Shown here piece by piece: positions 13,955-20,367 of a stretch of 32,000 bases of DNA. The notes beneath the pieces are model-generated. The model was given only the letters and a program-made list of their open reading frames with translations, was not told the DNA's origin and made no database searches. Position 1 is the first letter of the stretch; every line of letters starts with the position of its first letter. Both the position numbers and the translations under genes were made by a program. The DNA comes from Candidatus Thorarchaeota archaeon (GTDB taxonomy: Archaea; Asgardarchaeota; Heimdallarchaeia; Hodarchaeales; Hodarchaeaceae): NCBI GenBank assembly GCA_048882505.1, contig JBHLRO010000008.1:90001-122000 (forward strand), read 5' to 3'.

Positions 13955-16528
13955 TTACAGCTCCATTCGGACTCGTCTTACTATTGGAGCTTGACGCAAA
14001 TTTTTTTTGGCTTCCCTAATGACATCGTCAGACCGAAGTAAATTTGTACCTTCATAAATAACGAAACTGTTAGTTTGTATCAGATGATCTAAGGTCTCTC
14101 TCTCCGAATCGTCAAGTGGTCGTCCCGATAGTACTAGATCGAGGTACGTATTGATATCTACTGGTTTCAGATATTTTCCTACATGATCAAGTATTAGCTC
14201 ATGACCCCTCAATGATTCGGGAAAATAAAGCTCATATACTAAGTAATTGGCCAGATTGCGCAAAAATGGAAGCCTTTTTCCCTTTTTTCGTTTGAAAATG
14301 GTCTCCTGAGATAGGAAAATAAGCCAGGTGGCCAAACTGGCAAATTCGACCTGCCAATGTTTTGGATAGATGATGGGTAGTAATTTTGTATAGTATTTGT
14401 GAAGATATACGGTCAATCGCGAAAAATTCAATATATAGCGTTTTAAGATATAATTAAGTAGGTCAGAGTTTAATAAAATTAGCATAGGTAAGAATTGATA
14501 GGAAAGTGGAACTTCTAATACCGAAACATTAGTCCCAGGGATAAATTTTTCAGGTTTATATGCAACTCTAAGCTTGTTACCTATCGCAGTACATATCAGG
14601 CGCGGTTCATTATAATAGGTCAAAAATCGCTTGTTGCGGGGATGAGCTTTTATATACTGAAAGTATTTGGGTTTTAAGCCAAATGGAGCAACGCATCTAC
14701 CAGAATGCAGGTAGGAAATCGTATAATATTCTCTGGAGGGGCCATTTATATGGTCTTTTTTGAATACACGGTGGTCTATTCCATAATCTCCTGAAACAAC
14801 GTTTATTTCACCCCTCTGTACTGTCTTTTGCCAGAGATCGTCGTGATAAATCATGAAGCGATCGTATTTCCTAAACGGTTCGATTTCAATCAGTGGATTT
14901 GCCTTGATATCACTACGTGGATAGATCTGAACCATAGAACTACTCTTGGCGGTATTTCGGAGAAATAACGAGCACATTTCTAGTGTTACATCTTCAAAAG
15001 CTTGAGCTTCGTCTCTTATCTTCCAGATCTGGGTGTGTTCTAAAAGGAACGTTCTAAGTGCTTCAAATTCCTCAACTCGTAATATGGAAAACGGAACTAT
15101 GAAACCTAATAATCCACCTGGTTTTAATAGGGATATTGCTCTTTCGATAAAGGCAGCAGCAGCATTTAGGCTATACTTCTTGGGAGGCCCAGTGCAAGAT
15201 CGAAATAACAATTTACAAAGCTGTTTTTGGAATGAGGAAAGTATCGATCTTCCATACGGGGGATTACCAATGCAAATATCGAACCCTTCATCCGACATTA
15301 TGCGTGGAAATTCATGTTCCCAATGAAAAAGCTTAATATCTGACAGATCTTCCATACGAACTTTGGGCGATTTTCTTTTCAAAAACTCCCAATACATGAC
15401 TTGAATCAAGGATGATAATTCGGTTTTCACCCTGGTTAAGATTTCATTTGTCTGTGGGTCGTGGCTCCATCCAGCTTTTTCCAAAGCAGCGCTTATTTCT
15501 ATCCAATCGATGTGTTCATTTTCGCTATCATCAAGTCCCAGAATACCTGTTCTACCTAATTTGCGCTTCAGAGAGAGTATTGTATTCCTGTAATCTAAGG
15601 GATACCTTAGGGGCTCTTTGCAGGTTCCAAAAAGACTATTTCCATTCTTTAAATTCATCAATATACTTGAAGGAAGGCTATTCAGGGAAATCTCATTTTT
15701 TGAGAGGGCCCAACATATTAAACGGAATTTTGCTACCAAAAGACTGCTTTGGGATAATTCTACTCCAAAAATGCAATTCTGCAGGATCCATGGCGCCAAG
15801 GGCATATTTCTTTTATCCTCTAAGCGCCTGTATAGGGACTCTGCAGCGTAGGCCAAAAAGGAACCAGTTCCACAACCAGGGTCTAATATAGTTATTACAT
15901 CGTCACTCGATCGCGTACCTTCGATGTCTCGCCACTGTTGATCGTTTCGGTACCGATCAAGGCACTCATCTGTGATTTGCCTAATAACAAACCACGGAGT
16001 AAAGTATATACCCTTCTTTTTTCTATTTGGAGAAATAGAGCTCTTTAATGATAGGAATTTATCGTATTCAAAGAGAATCTGTTCATAAAAAAAAGATAGG
16101 AATTCGGGCGTGATTATGCGTTTAGAAGTGATTTTCTGCTGAAAATTCTCCTCTAAAGTCCACCGATAAGAGTAAAGAATAGAAATAAGATCATTCCATT
16201 CTTCTTGAGATAAGGCATCTTTTAATTGCTGTTCATAATGCGAACTAGTTAATAAACTGCCAATGACGTACGGTAAATCTATCTCCTCACGAAATTGAGG
16301 TTGAAACAATATCCTTAGGAGAACATTACGTCCATTTCGGACAGTACTATCGTCAAATAGTTCATTTTCGAAATTAAAAGTCCATTTCCGAAGGAAAAAC
16401 AATCCAAGGATTCGAATTAGTAAATTCAACGATGCTTCATGGATTTCCTGGGATGATAACCCATAGGAAACCCCTCGCTGGAGAAATTGTTTATAAAATG
16501 GCTTTAATTCGTCAAATAAATCCTTCAT
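13955..16528 (-). CDS. N6-adenine DNA methyltransferase, Eco57I/Type IIG-like, with TaqI-like C-terminal target-recognition domain and no recognisable nuclease domain
   Basis: GIYFTP, ILDPGCGTGSFL (motif I), IFGVEL, FHWEHEFP, FDICIGNPPY (motif IV), AAFIERAISLLKPGGLLGFIVP and LNSDLLNY. ATG at 16528 (ORF-track TTG 16540). Confidence 0.9.
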   Translation of the reverse strand: MKDLFDELKPFYKQFLQRGVSYGLSSQEIHEASLNLLIRILGLFFLRKWTFNFENELFDDSTVRNGRNVLLRILFQPQFREEIDLPYVIGSLLTSSHYEQQLKDALSQEEWNDLISILYSYRWTLEENFQQKITSKRIITPEFLSFFYEQILFEYDKFLSLKSSISPNRKKKGIYFTPWFVIRQITDECLDRYRNDQQWRDIEGTRSSDDVITILDPGCGTGSFLAYAAESLYRRLEDKRNMPLAPWILQNCIFGVELSQSSLLVAKFRLICWALSKNEISLNSLPSSILMNLKNGNSLFGTCKEPLRYPLDYRNTILSLKRKLGRTGILGLDDSENEHIDWIEISAALEKAGWSHDPQTNEILTRVKTELSSLIQVMYWEFLKRKSPKVRMEDLSDIKLFHWEHEFPRIMSDEGFDICIGNPPYGRSILSSFQKQLCKLLFRSCTGPPKKYSLNAAAAFIERAISLLKPGGLLGFIVPFSILRVEEFEALRTFLLEHTQIWKIRDEAQAFEDVTLEMCSLFLRNTAKSSSMVQIYPRSDIKANPLIEIEPFRKYDRFMIYHDDLWQKTVQRGEINVVSGDYGIDHRVFKKDHINGPSREYYTISYLHSGRCVAPFGLKPKYFQYIKAHPRNKRFLTYYNEPRLICTAIGNKLRVAYKPEKFIPGTNVSVLEVPLSYQFLPMLILLNSDLLNYILKRYILNFSRLTVYLHKYYTKLLPIIYPKHWQVEFASLATWLIFLSQETIFKRKKGKRLPFLRNLANYLVYELYFPESLRGHELILDHVGKYLKPVDINTYLDLVLSGRPLDDSERETLDHLIQTNSFVIYEGTNLLRSDDVIREAKKNLRQAPIVRRVRMEL

Positions 16529-16555
16529 ACTTAAAAACAACGGGTAATAAACGGT

Positions 16556-16563
16556 TTTATAAA
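16556..16563. promoter_or_regulatory. Palindromic TATA box TTTATAAA in the divergent methyltransferase/CCA intergenic region
   Basis: About 28-35 bp upstream of ATG 16528, typical archaeal spacing for a short-leader transcript. Confidence 0.45.
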
Positions 16564-16646
16564 CTGAATCCTATCATTTTGACCTAAAACTGGGCCATCC
16601 TCGGAAGGTACACAGATTAGGGTATAGTACTGGCTGCTGATTACCA

Positions 16647-18623
16647 TTGGTTGCTTCAATTAATGACCATATAATTCCTCCGGAAATATGGGAAATCTGC
16701 AGACATCTGAACTCACAACAGAAACAAGTATATCTTGTAGGAGGCTCAATTAGGGATCTAATAATAGGAAACATCGTACCAGATGACTGGGATGTCGCTA
16801 CGGATTCCAAACCCTCAGAAACTATTCAAATCTTTAAAGAAAAACTCGGATTTCGTGTTATTCCGACGGGTCTTACTCACGGAACGGTTACTGTTCTTGT
16901 TAACACACGTCCCGTCGAAGTTACAACATTTCGGGTTGAGGAGGGATATAATGATGGAAGGCGTCCTTCGCATGTAGAATTTGTAAGTGATGTCAATCAG
17001 GATTTAGCTAGAAGGGATCTAACCTGTAATGCTATTGCATATGATCCTTTCAAGAAACAGATTCTGGACCCTTATGGAGGGATTGATGATATTAGGGCCC
17101 AGATTCTACGGATGGTTGGAGATCCACATAAAAGATTAGAAGAGGACGGATTACGGGCCCTTAGGATTTTTCGCTTTGTAGCTCAGTTGGGATTTAAAAT
17201 AGAAGCCAATACATTGAAGGCCATTCCACATCACTTCACTACGTTTGTAAAAGTCGCAATAGAACGTATTCAAGCCGAACTTGATCGATTGATGTCAGCA
17301 CCCCACTGGAAACAAGCTTTAATTGCCTTGGAAAAAAGCGGGCTGCTCTATGAAATATGCCCTGACTTTGGGTACAAAGCGATGAAGGAGAAACTAAAGC
17401 CTTCATCACGTGATCGAATTTCTCTTACTTTTGATGTATTACAAACGATACCCTCTGATGCTCCGATTCGGTTAAGATATGCTGTATTGCTGCATCAACT
17501 TTCATCAATTCCCCAAAATACCTCCACAATATTCCCAAAATGTGATAATGAATATATTGCACAACTTTTAAGAAATTTACGTTTTCCCAAAAGGGCCGCG
17601 TCTGAAATCCTCCATCTCCTTAACATACACACAAAATCTTTCTCAGTAGAACTTTCGAGGGGTAAGTCAATCCAAGGATATCAAATGCGAAAATTCCTCT
17701 ATACAATTCGTCCAGAGTACCTCAAGGAATATTTTTGGTTTAAGATGGCCAAGGATATTGGATTTAGAGGGAGTTCGAACATCACAGAAGAGGCTTTTTC
17801 AGAAATTGAGCAGTTAGCAGCTAATAATCCACCAATAGAACTCAGCGATTTGATATTAAATGGTGAGAATGTTACTGAGCACTTGTTTCTCAACAAAAAG
17901 AAAGCTTCAGAACGAGAACTTATTGGACGAATCCTAACCATAATTCGCGAAAGGGTCGAACTACATCCCAAGGACAATACAGTAGAGAATCTTAACGAGA
18001 TCTTATCGAACATACGTCCCATCCTTCTCAGGTGCCAACGAAAGGATCCTCAAATGGTACGGATTGTGGCAACAGACCATATTCGGAAAATATATACCAA
18101 GAACAACCCCACATATCGTCCGTGGGAAAATCGTCACACTTACCTGTTATCGCGCTGGTTGTGCATGTGTTTACTAAGAGAAAATCGTCGATCAATAGTT
18201 ATATTCGACGGAACAAACCTGGATCTGCCTCCTCATTCCAATCATCGGAAATCTCTAGCAAAACGGTTTATAAGATATCGTCCCTTCTTTATCAATCTGA
18301 TAGCAACGAGGGAACAGGCTCAGAAGAATTCATTCCTTAGAAGAGCTGGTAGAGACGTAATTCTTGGTAGTGATGCTGATATGGACGTTTTCGAGCGATT
18401 TAAGGAGCGTATGGAGATGAATCCATCCTGCTTGGCAATTCCGGACCAATGTAATGGAACCACTCTTAATACTCACGATCCTGGATTTCAAGATGAGTTA
18501 GAATCGGTGGTAACTAGTATTCAAGACGCAAAACACAGGATTATCATTCTGGGCGGAAACGTTTTAACAGGAAAAACCTATACCGCTCTCGCAATCAAAA
18601 AAATGCTTGAAGATGATAAGTAG
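16647..18623 (+). CDS. cca: Class II (bacterial-type) CCA tRNA nucleotidyltransferase with degenerate HD region, fused to a C-terminal P-loop kinase-like domain
   Basis: LVGGSIRD, DWD (catalytic DxD), VEVTTFR, DGRRP, DLARRDLTCNAIA and EDGLRALR. LLHQ replaces LLHD. The C-terminal part has TDHIR, IFDGTNL and GGNVLTGKT. Confidence 0.88.
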   Translation: MVASINDHIIPPEIWEICRHLNSQQKQVYLVGGSIRDLIIGNIVPDDWDVATDSKPSETIQIFKEKLGFRVIPTGLTHGTVTVLVNTRPVEVTTFRVEEGYNDGRRPSHVEFVSDVNQDLARRDLTCNAIAYDPFKKQILDPYGGIDDIRAQILRMVGDPHKRLEEDGLRALRIFRFVAQLGFKIEANTLKAIPHHFTTFVKVAIERIQAELDRLMSAPHWKQALIALEKSGLLYEICPDFGYKAMKEKLKPSSRDRISLTFDVLQTIPSDAPIRLRYAVLLHQLSSIPQNTSTIFPKCDNEYIAQLLRNLRFPKRAASEILHLLNIHTKSFSVELSRGKSIQGYQMRKFLYTIRPEYLKEYFWFKMAKDIGFRGSSNITEEAFSEIEQLAANNPPIELSDLILNGENVTEHLFLNKKKASERELIGRILTIIRERVELHPKDNTVENLNEILSNIRPILLRCQRKDPQMVRIVATDHIRKIYTKNNPTYRPWENRHTYLLSRWLCMCLLRENRRSIVIFDGTNLDLPPHSNHRKSLAKRFIRYRPFFINLIATREQAQKNSFLRRAGRDVILGSDADMDVFERFKERMEMNPSCLAIPDQCNGTTLNTHDPGFQDELESVVTSIQDAKHRIIILGGNVLTGKTYTALAIKKMLEDDK

Positions 18624-18657
18624 TTTCGAATTATCCCTATTCCTCTTGGGGGTAAAT

Positions 18658-20367
18658 GTGGTTAGTATTTCAAATCCCAAAAACAAGAAAGCCATGGGGC
18701 AGTACTTCACACCTGTCCCAATTGTCAAATGCCTTGTAAACATTCTCATAGATCTTATTCCTAGGGAAAAGATGCAGGGATTGAACGTTCTAGATCCTGC
18801 GGTCGGAGAAGGCATATTCTTAGAAATCCTGAAGGAAGAATTAAATTCAAGATTTCTAGCAAACAAACAGAACATTCACCAGATCCTAGGTATTGATATA
18901 GATCGCAAATCAATCCTTAAAGCTTTAGAGAGGGAGAATGAACAAAAATCGGTTCGAAACCTTGAGATCAAATATCTCGTGGGAGACTTCTTCCAGTTAT
19001 ACGACCAACGAAAACACGAATGGGATTTTGACATAGTTCTTGGCAACCCCCCACACGCAGCCCGTTATTCTCGCTCCCAATGGGAATATATTCGGTCTCT
19101 TATCCCCAGTGGTATGAACAAACGTTTTCCAAAGGAATCAGCAATATTTTTCACCATATTGGCCTTGGATTCATTAAAAGATAGTGGAATCCTTGGCTTT
19201 GTCTTACCCAAACCTCTTTTATACTCACAAAGATGGTATACATTAAGGAGACTGATATTAACAGAATACAAAGTCAACTACGTGATTGATTTTGGCAATC
19301 AATTCGCCTCACAAAATCAAGAACACATTGGAATAATAATAAGTAAAACAAAGCCTGACTCAAGTTATCAAACAGGTTTATACAACAAAAAAACAAATTT
19401 CTTAACGACCTTATCGGATATACCTGTTCAAGACGCCTTACTTACTGATAATTTTCTTGTTGATGTATCAACGAAAGAAAGAGCCTTAATTCGTAAGTTA
19501 CTTAGCCCCAAATATCGATCTCTGGATGTTGAAGCTTATAGAGGTATCAGCAGCAGGTTTCGTGTACAATCTTATGGATTGCCACTTATTGAAAAAAAAA
19601 CCATGGGGAGGGGATTTCTTTTTCCTTCAAGCAGTTTCGTTTCAAGTGAAACCCCTCCAAAGGTATTGATAAAATATCTACACCCAAAAATAATCCTCCA
19701 ACGTATAATTCCTTATAAAACTAATCCGTATAGTTTTATCATCTACCCTTGGGTTGATGTTGATGGAAACATCATACCACATGAAACAACTGTCATATTA
19801 AAGAATCCTAAGCCAAAATATCCTCTAAAAGTTCTTGCTGCAATCCTTCAGTCATCACTAACTGAATGGTGGTTGCGCCACGTTGTATTTACCAAACAGT
19901 TTGTCACTAGTAAAGATTTTGACAGAGCTTACATTGAAAAAGTCCGAGTTCCGCTTGTTCCAAACGAAGGATATGTGTCTCATCCAGGTTCACTGGAACT
20001 AAGCCTAGATTTACTGAACTACCAGGTTTTACTAGATCTTGCCAATCAGGAAGATTCGTTACATGAAATCTCTCTGCTTGGAGAACTCTATGATCATTTC
20101 ATCATTTGCGGAGTTAAAATCAAATCAATCATACAAGAAAATTTAAGAGCTCTTCCTATTCATCAGAAAAACAGTAAATATTTTCAGGAATTCCATAATA
20201 TCTATCGAAGGATAACGAGAGGTCACAGCCATACGTCTGATATGTATAAAAGGATACAAGGCCTATTGGGGAACCAGAACTTAATCCAAAGATGCATCAA
20301 TGAGCTTACATTTCGTTTATATCATTTAACAAGTGAAGAATCCGCTTTAATAAAGAAGAATTTCTAA
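18658..20367 (+). CDS. N6-adenine DNA methyltransferase, M.TaqI-like gamma class, with NPPH catalytic variant
   Basis: GQYFTP, VLDPAVGEGIFL, ILGIDID, YLVGDFF, FDIVLGNPPH and LKDSGILGFVLP, plus a TaqI_C-like tail (KIILQRI ... LAAILQSSL.EWW ... IEKVRVP). Likely GTG start at 18658 after GGGGGT; the ORF is open from 18607. Confidence 0.88.
   Translation: MVSISNPKNKKAMGQYFTPVPIVKCLVNILIDLIPREKMQGLNVLDPAVGEGIFLEILKEELNSRFLANKQNIHQILGIDIDRKSILKALERENEQKSVRNLEIKYLVGDFFQLYDQRKHEWDFDIVLGNPPHAARYSRSQWEYIRSLIPSGMNKRFPKESAIFFTILALDSLKDSGILGFVLPKPLLYSQRWYTLRRLILTEYKVNYVIDFGNQFASQNQEHIGIIISKTKPDSSYQTGLYNKKTNFLTTLSDIPVQDALLTDNFLVDVSTKERALIRKLLSPKYRSLDVEAYRGISSRFRVQSYGLPLIEKKTMGRGFLFPSSSFVSSETPPKVLIKYLHPKIILQRIIPYKTNPYSFIIYPWVDVDGNIIPHETTVILKNPKPKYPLKVLAAILQSSLTEWWLRHVVFTKQFVTSKDFDRAYIEKVRVPLVPNEGYVSHPGSLELSLDLLNYQVLLDLANQEDSLHEISLLGELYDHFIICGVKIKSIIQENLRALPIHQKNSKYFQEFHNIYRRITRGHSHTSDMYKRIQGLLGNQNLIQRCINELTFRLYHLTSEESALIKKNF

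Follow-up and report, generated by a model that had tools for sequence, protein, structure and literature searches.

A class II CCA-adding enzyme joined to a putative circularly permuted P-loop kinase domain in Hodarchaeales

The Hodarchaeales are the archaea placed closest to eukaryotes. In this lineage class I CCA-adding enzymes are replaced by class II enzymes, which occur as A and B paralogs, and a Hodarchaeum enzyme, CCA2, is active in vitro (Cassidy et al. 2026, bioRxiv 10.64898/2026.05.29.728689). Whether CCA2 is the long or the short paralog is not specified there, the words kinase and P-loop are absent from the text, and C-terminal regions were trimmed in that study. The subject of this report is a gene for a long class II enzyme in a 32,000-nucleotide stretch of a Candidatus Thorarchaeota archaeon genome of the Hodarchaeales (GCA_048882505.1, contig JBHLRO010000008.1, positions 90,001 to 122,000; hereafter the window, whose numbering is used throughout). 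The 658-residue product contains two modules, a CCA enzyme (residues 1 to about 465) and a P-loop kinase domain of about 190 residues, the segments of which very probably stand in circularly permuted order.

The closest described relatives of the first module are class II CCA-adding enzymes. The head, neck, body and tail of the Bacillus stearothermophilus CCA enzyme (PDB 1MIV) are all present in the fusion with the catalytic motifs intact; relative to that enzyme and to Hodarchaeales CCA2, the fusion adds the kinase domain of about 190 residues behind the tail. The multifunctional CCA enzyme of Escherichia coli carries CCA addition and an HD-domain phosphohydrolase in one chain. The fusion resembles it in joining CCA addition to a second module predicted to perform phosphate or hydroxyl chemistry on RNA ends, but the E. 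coli module is a phosphohydrolase within the body whereas that of the fusion is an appended P-loop kinase. Among kinases, Asp-x-x-Arg and D-x-T-N typify the polynucleotide 5′-kinases of the T4 Pnk group, which act in RNA repair and in which the roles of both motifs are known. In PSTK and Kti12, which are tied to tRNA as the fusion is, an unpermuted N-terminal kinase is followed by a tRNA-binding domain, whereas in the fusion the CCA enzyme stands in front as the tRNA-binding partner. Circular permutation is natural in the P-loop fold, in the YlqF/YawG and RsgA-family GTPases (PMC1262696); these belong to the TRAFAC class, have the order G4-G5-G1-G2-G3 and are GTPases, whereas the fusion domain is of the kinase type. 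No report of a permuted P-loop kinase or of a CCA-kinase fusion was found in the literature searched, the coverage of which was incomplete. The combination is a new architecture of known parts; no earlier description of the appended permuted kinase came to light, whereas the class II CCA enzyme in Hodarchaeales is already known.

The fusion gene and the predicted elements of its kinase domain are located as follows.

16647..18623, + strand: fusion gene of 658 codons and a stop, encoding a class II CCA-adding enzyme joined to a putative circularly permuted kinase domain
18054..18620, + strand: predicted circularly permuted AAA_33/PNK-like P-loop kinase domain (residues 470-658), from profile comparison, an AlphaFold model and structure searches
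18057..18089, + strand: β2-equivalent strand with the T-D-H-I-R-K motif (D477 at 18075-18077, R480 at 18084-18086), from the re-permuted alignment and conservation
18195..18218, + strand: β3-equivalent strand with F-D-G-T-N (D521 at 18207-18209), from alignments and the model
18282..18299, + strand: β4-equivalent strand (residues 546-551; P546 followed by FFINL at 547-551), from the models
18327..18380, + strand: lid region with invariant N561-x3-R565 followed by S-D-A-D (575-578), the latter common to canonical AAA_33 relatives, from alignments
18453..18527, + strand: β5-equivalent strand (603-607) and the helix that closes a canonical kinase (614-627), from models and alignment
18540..18611, + strand: relocated N-terminal module comprising strand IIILG (632-636), Walker A G-N-V-L-T-G-K-T (637-644) and helix α1 (643-655), from translation, alignments and models

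A preliminary description of this DNA had proposed a CCA enzyme fused to a permuted kinase-like domain, and that architecture is supported by profile comparison, predicted structure and conservation. All of the sequence strings quoted in it were found where it had placed them in the translation of 16647-18620, and its location of the Walker A motif at 18555-18578 (G637-T644; K643 codon 18573-18575) was exact. The codon at 18054 is Met470, one residue ahead of VRIVATDHIRK (471-481); IVIFDGTNL occupies residues 517-525, FFINLIAT 547-554, SDADMDVFERFKERME 575-590 and RIIILGGNVLTGKTYTALAIKKML 631-654. The TTG start of the gene is uncertain, an ortholog with 85% identity beginning 8-9 codons further downstream.

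The order of elements in the kinase domain is β2 (DxxR), β3 (DGTN), β4, lid, β5 and αC, followed in the last 28 residues by β1, Walker A and α1. The cut corresponds to the α1/β2 loop, such that the chain enters at β2 and ends with α1, 14 residues past GKT. In the full-length model a turn of four residues, leading from the last helix (614-627) to the P-loop strand (632-636), links the former termini, and no redundant remnant was present at either end of the permuted domain. The usual route to circular permutation is tandem duplication followed by truncation, and the clean cut fits a tandem kinase duplication trimmed at both ends. In canonical kinases Walker A is N-terminal, ahead of Asp-x-x-Arg and D-x-T-N, whereas in every member of the present family it lay at the extreme C-terminus.

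The permutation was examined by profile comparison. The canonical reference was an alignment of 14 archaeal AAA_33 kinases built around the 182-residue member of this genome, and the fusion domain was re-permuted in silico by shifting the last ~30 alignment columns to the front, a construct tested by hhalign only. For the native domain the alignment ran from residue 23 to residue 178 of the 182-residue template (score 87.8, E 1.8e-13, probability 98.0%). The re-permuted domain aligned collinearly over residues 3-179 with a score of 123.5, an E-value of 1.4e-19 and a probability of 99.2%, and paired GNVLTGKT with GLPGTGKT, TDHIRK with TDSIRR, DGT with DGT, N561 and R565 with the lid RxxxR, and SDAD with SDAD. 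This comparison, which the preliminary description had suggested as a check, converted a partial match into an end-to-end one with P-loop on P-loop. In the alignments D477 and R480 fall on the Asp-x-x-Arg of canonical relatives.

Two family members matched Pfam AAA_33 weakly over model positions 25-138 (16.6-18.5 bits against a cut-off of 27), and in the same two proteins the last ~35 residues matched the P-loop start of Zeta_toxin and nSTAND3. When the C-terminal 209 residues were compared by phmmer with 1.84 billion proteins, the sole match outside the family was an AAA_33 protein (P0019), which itself matches AAA_33 positions 25-133 and was aligned by the family profile with 97.5% probability (hhalign). 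Pfam searches with the native C-terminal domain and with its two pieces returned no kinase family, the 41-residue P-loop piece giving weak P-loop matches only, and an HMMER profile of the domain yielded only noise among PDB sequences. No stand-alone, unpermuted-fusion or intermediate form was detected by phmmer against the 1.84 billion representatives or by a profile search of proteins of 54-368 residues; apart from the one ordinary AAA_33 protein, these searches gave only members and short proteins of the same family, mostly on short contigs. A reading of FDGTN as a haloacid dehalogenase (HAD) phosphatase motif was also considered and dropped, since the protein has no DxD as in HAD motif I and the alignment places this strand on the DGT strand of AAA_33.

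The Asgard stand-alone AAA_33 proteins, namely the 182-residue protein of this genome (L001 1417-1965) and proteins of 191-197 residues in a sister family, have GxxGxGKT, (S)TDxxR, DGT, the lid arginine and SDAD in common with the fusion domain, in the same spatial roles and with hhalign probabilities of 98-99%. They differ in having the P-loop first and an RxxxR lid; the fusion has its P-loop at the end, Asn in place of the first lid Arg, and a CCA enzyme attached to the domain. The 182-residue kinase, on contig C10, is the nearest unpermuted relative in the genome; at L001 450-1965 its gene overlaps by a few bases with one for a 326-residue protein that looks like a kinase of the aminoglycoside phosphotransferase type.

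An AlphaFold model built on a 17-sequence alignment showed the kinase domain as one compact unit (predicted local distance difference test [pLDDT] 88.8, predicted template modelling score [pTM] 0.87). In domain numbering it consists of a strand (17-20), helices, strands at 63-67 and 92-97, lid helices, a strand (149-153), a helix (160-173), the terminal strand (178-183) and the terminal helix (189-202). The preliminary description had made packing of the terminal strand, P-loop and helix with the rest of the domain a test of its proposal; in the model these last 30 residues lie inside the compact domain with pLDDT 92-96.

Comparison of the model with 48,161 PDB chains by VIA-align returned P-loop kinases in nearly all 50 listed rows, including PSTK (Z 8.8), Kti12 (8.6), a Chloroflexus kinase (8.3), Clostridium thermocellum Pnkp (8.0), chloramphenicol phosphotransferase (7.9) and T4 Pnk (7.2). 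Superpositions on the kinase cores of PSTK, Kti12, Pnkp and T4 Pnk covered 118-142 residues. In most rows model residues 11-16 to 140-176 were placed on a kinase domain from approximately residue 24-40, just past the P-loop helix, and the last ~28 model residues stayed unaligned. The range offsets for T4 Pnk, of which chain residues 24-148 fell on model residues 12-140, are consistent with D477 standing opposite Asp35. T4 Pnk (1LY1/1LTQ) and the kinase of C. thermocellum Pnkp (4GP6) resemble the fusion domain in core fold (Z 7.1-8.0) and in Asp-x-x-Arg and D-x-T-N; the fusion differs from them in having no phosphatase or ligase module and a permuted chain order, and 5′-kinase activity is only predicted for it. 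PSTK (3A4L) and Kti12 (6QP0) were the best structural matches; their family models (TIGR03574, PF08433) did not match the fusion protein and the dedicated C-terminal tRNA-binding domain is absent from it. Searches of the ESM Atlas found AAA_33 clusters with template modelling (TM) scores of up to 0.66 by query and 0.70 by hit, covering model residues 1-175 or 16-174. Sequence and structure results agree on one boundary, which makes the permutation reading persuasive despite modest Z-scores, and a permuted kinase fold is considered very likely from the alignments and models.

Conservation of the terminal GxxxxGK(T/S) in homologs, on which the preliminary description had made its proposal depend, held. 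The Walker A consensus GNVL(T/S)GK(T/S) was retained in 17 of 17 relatives with 30-85% identity to the domain of the window; G637, N638, V639, L640, G642 and K643 were invariant, as were N561, R565, S575 and A577. T476, D477, R480, K481, T523 and N524 were invariant among 13 full-length or near full-length proteins. Within the DGTN strand T and N did not vary, D was replaced by E in one sequence and G by A in two. All family proteins end 14-22 residues beyond Walker A. The lid RxxxR had been described as only partly recognizable; it is better read as the invariant N561-x3-R565, aligned with the RxxxR of canonical relatives. A chance Walker A was ruled out by the conservation in the 17 relatives.

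Searches with the C-terminal 209 residues recovered a small family of 650-680-residue proteins and fragments, the sources of which are named as metagenome-assembled genomes of Heimdallarchaeota, Hodarchaeota/Hodarchaeales or Promethearchaeota. In a set of 301 Asgard genomes, 16 of the 20 other members of the window's own Hodarchaeales-type family had the full domain, always within a frame of 650-700 residues, and none of the other Asgard families sampled had it; weaker matches in a sister family were ordinary AAA_33 kinases of 191-197 residues with an N-terminal P-loop. An assembly chimera, the possible artefact raised in the preliminary description, was ruled out, since the same frame occurs in independent metagenome contigs as well as in 16 further genomes at species level; the fusion is real and recurrent. 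Two of the 16 fusion-bearing genomes are single-contig assemblies.

The N-terminal two thirds of the fusion form a complete class II (bacterial-type) CCA-type enzyme, judged from its motifs and model, and CCA addition by the fusion is predicted. Its parts are these.

16728..17111, + strand: nucleotidyltransferase head domain, PF01743 (residues 28-155; Pfam 117.2 bits, cut-off 23), with GGSIRD, DWD, RRD and DPYGG motifs
17190..17369, + strand: neck or RNA-binding region, PF12627 (residues 182-241; Pfam 46.9 bits, cut-off 22)
17370..18038, + strand: helical body and tail of the CCA enzyme, from the full-length model and a Foldseek match to the whole of 1miv_A

Catalytic motifs A-E were all read in the protein (GGSIRD, DWD, RRD, DPYGG, EDGLR, ERI), with the nucleotide-template motif EDGLR at residues 166-170, just 5′ of the neck region. 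E166-R170 was invariant and the RRD block nearly invariant in family alignments, and N-terminal motifs were absent only in truncated sequences. In the full-length AlphaFold model (pLDDT 88.5, pTM 0.79) the first ~450 residues matched the whole B. stearothermophilus enzyme 1miv_A by Foldseek (TM 0.82 by target, E 1.1e-18), followed by 45 further chains of CCA-, A- and CC-adding enzymes and poly(A) polymerases. A long helix (residues 446-464) closes the CCA tail and runs into the kinase domain. The best NCBIfam model was that of the Bacillus-type CCA enzyme, under its equivalog cut-off: PRK13299 (CCA tRNA nucleotidyltransferase) scored 245.9 against 290 bits and its match covered residues 17-248 only. 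NF008137, the entry linked with the multifunctional E. coli enzyme, was weakly matched. A 3′-phosphatase module of HAD or metallophosphoesterase type was absent from the whole fusion protein in Pfam and NCBIfam searches.

The window belongs to a 4.3-Mb genome that is 94.5% complete. A class I archaeal CCA enzyme (PF09249) was detected in only 2 of 22 family genomes, and this genome was not one of them. The genome has two class II genes, the long fusion and a 385-residue paralog with 32% identity to it.

Contig C1:181599-181964 (L007 1396-2553): 385-residue class II CCA paralog with catalytic motifs present

The Y-x-D-G-R-R-P consensus of the flexible loop before RRD is kept in the long form and absent in the 385-residue paralog. 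The loss of class I and the two class II paralogs seen here agree with the published account of Hodarchaeales (10.64898/2026.05.29.728689). The long form and a paralog of 385-410 residues occurred together in 17 of the 22 family genomes searched, that of the window included, and the two forms might have divided CC- and A-adding between them. Three genomes of the same family (G238, G127 and G062; 87-93% complete) gave no PolyA_pol match, and only G238 had a class I CCA enzyme; the lack of a recognized CCA enzyme in G127 and G062 may be due to genome incompleteness.

Two genes flank the fusion in the window.

13955..16540, - strand: adenine methyltransferase-like gene of the Eco57I/N6_Mtase/TaqI_C type (861 residues), divergent from the fusion; conserved neighbour
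18607..20367, + strand: N6_Mtase/Eco57I methyltransferase-like gene (575-586 residues, BseCI/CamA-like), which abuts or overlaps the fusion stop; conserved neighbour

The fusion sits between these two genes in the window and in five diverged loci (33-85% identity), the outer flanks of which differ; across loci the divergent Eco57I/TaqI_C gene encodes ~860 residues and the co-directional N6_Mtase gene ~570-586. The unit spans 13955-20367 of the window and was also seen at loci L008, L009, L025 and L026. Within the family the three genes were adjacent wherever contigs allow, and all three were absent together in five genomes. Both methyltransferases resemble DNA adenine methyltransferases (TaqI, BseCI, CamA, PglX). 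No nuclease gene was recognized and PADLOC gave no match for the fusion. The linkage of the fusion with the methyltransferases is no more than suggestive, given that the family genomes are not independent samples. Motif IV of the downstream methyltransferase reads N-P-P-H (19045-19056) instead of N-P-P-Y/F/W. The sequence G-N-P-P-H-x-A-x-Y-S was identical in three orthologs only 31-37% identical to one another, and N-P-P-H is on this account a conserved variant and no recent defect.

A model of function can be proposed in which one polypeptide would carry two enzyme modules, CCA addition coming first and the permuted kinase being reached through the long helix. By folding back to the domain's interior, the last 28 residues would provide the loop that binds the ATP phosphates (K643, T644), and D477/R480, D521 and R565 would complete the phosphotransfer site. 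ATP binding, and probably catalysis, are expected because the Walker A Lys and Thr/Ser, Asp-x-x-Arg, the Asp of DGTN and one lid Arg are conserved, and an ATP-binding active site in the permuted domain is likely on sequence and model grounds. The kinase would phosphorylate, at the expense of ATP, a hydroxyl end of a tRNA held by the CCA module, the best guess being the 5′-OH, and the fusion would then be a combined tRNA end-repair and maturation enzyme. RNA or tRNA is the most economical guess at the substrate because the domain is permanently fused to a tRNA enzyme; the 5′-OH of RNA or tRNA as the kinase substrate is a tentative proposal with the odds against it. Leaving that specific substrate aside, the probability that the architecture and an active, tRNA-linked ATP-using site are jointly correct is put at roughly 55%.

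Several observations count against this model. The Pfam AAA_33 (PF13671) cut-off was reached by no family member and the domain of the window did not match at all. Foldseek, which aligns sequentially, gave nothing significant for the domain model in PDB (E ≤ 0.001) or in the AFDB clusters; its top PDB rows were unrelated α/β folds, its AFDB rows were weak matches to gluconokinase, adenylate kinase and AAA proteins, and no full-length permuted counterpart was found among the AFDB clusters. The VIA-align Z-scores of 8-9 are modest and lie where chance folds may also occur. The position of the terminal strand is an indirect prediction: it would be the central strand (order 2-3-1-4-5), flanked by the DGTN strand and β4, as suggested by its high confidence in a compact five-stranded domain, by the superposition of the other four strands on kinase β2-β5 and by the first ~25-30 residues of the kinase domains, which stay unaligned. 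The first lid Arg is an invariant Asn (N561) in the family. No ligase, phosphatase or other RNA-repair gene lies near the fusion gene, and the conserved neighbours look like DNA methyltransferases. Finally, in class II complexes of solved structure the tail domain is located by the tRNA elbow, a long way from the acceptor end, and the kinase, attached to the tail, would be distant from that end.

These observations leave room for other explanations, in some of which the domain binds ATP or is an active kinase but serves another purpose. Like Kti12 in its relation to Elongator, it could be a tRNA-dependent ATPase or a regulatory, tRNA-handling module, without phosphorylating RNA ends. PSTK and Kti12 head the structural matches, the lid has lost its first Arg, and the domain comes after the tail, the tRNA body-binding end of the CCA enzyme; yet Pnkp, gluconate kinase and others score within 1 Z unit, Asp-x-x-Arg, the acceptor motif found in true kinases, does not vary, and the C-terminal tRNA-binding domain of PSTK and Kti12 is missing, so that this explanation is unlikely. 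That the domain is an active kinase acting on a nucleotide or some other small molecule, with the fusion serving to supply nucleotides locally or arising for reasons apart from RNA ends, is likewise improbable. The structural neighbours, which tie within one Z unit in VIA-align, do include gluconate, shikimate, adenylate and APS kinases and chloramphenicol phosphotransferase, and the closest canonical relative in the genome adjoins the aminoglycoside-phosphotransferase-like gene, but fusion to a tRNA enzyme has been kept across 30-45% sequence divergence, and the canonical relatives weakly match the NCBIfam models for PSTK and bacterial Pnkp. A different use is suggested by the neighbours: the three genes could form a DNA-modification or defence module in which the fusion acts elsewhere than at cellular tRNA 3′ ends, with the short paralog as the housekeeping CCA enzyme. 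Two Eco57I-like methyltransferase genes flank the fusion while the outer flanks vary, the trio is either present or missing as a whole across the family, and a class II paralog of 385-410 residues co-occurs. Against this, the long form keeps all class II CCA motifs, the flexible-loop consensus included, PADLOC gave no match to it, no nuclease gene was recognized, and related genomes cannot be counted as independent samples; this explanation is held to be quite improbable.

Others concern the terminal P-loop itself. Class II CCA enzymes frequently dimerise, and with a turn of just four residues from αC to the P-loop strand the terminal module could complete the kinase core of a second subunit in a domain-swapped dimer; the monomer model, however, packs the module with high confidence into the domain of its own chain (pLDDT 92-96, pTM 0.87), and such a swap has low odds. 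That the P-loop is a functionless relic of a truncated second kinase copy and the core a dead pseudokinase is scarcely credible. A relic stage must once have existed on a duplication-truncation route, but few parts of the protein are as well conserved as Walker A, in which G, N, V, L, G and K are unchanged in 17 sequences, all proteins stop 14-22 residues past it, and the catalytic Asp and Arg are invariant. A wider proposal, namely the first natural circularly permuted P-loop kinase, performing single-chain tRNA end repair (5′ phosphorylation and 3′ CCA addition) and acting with the two flanking methyltransferases as a three-gene module in Hodarchaeales, is speculative and, as a whole, doubtful.

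If the fusion is the two-module enzyme with a permuted ATP-using site favoured here, the clean α1/β2 cut would make it a good case for studying how a nucleotide-binding site tolerates its key loop at a chain end. E. coli without cca has already served as expression host for a protein of the family (10.64898/2026.05.29.728689), which makes assays feasible. The extra ATP-binding module probably gives the long paralog a role beyond CCA addition, which could explain the retention of two paralogs, and it makes tRNA end repair or quality control in the archaea nearest to eukaryotes a concrete question for biochemistry.

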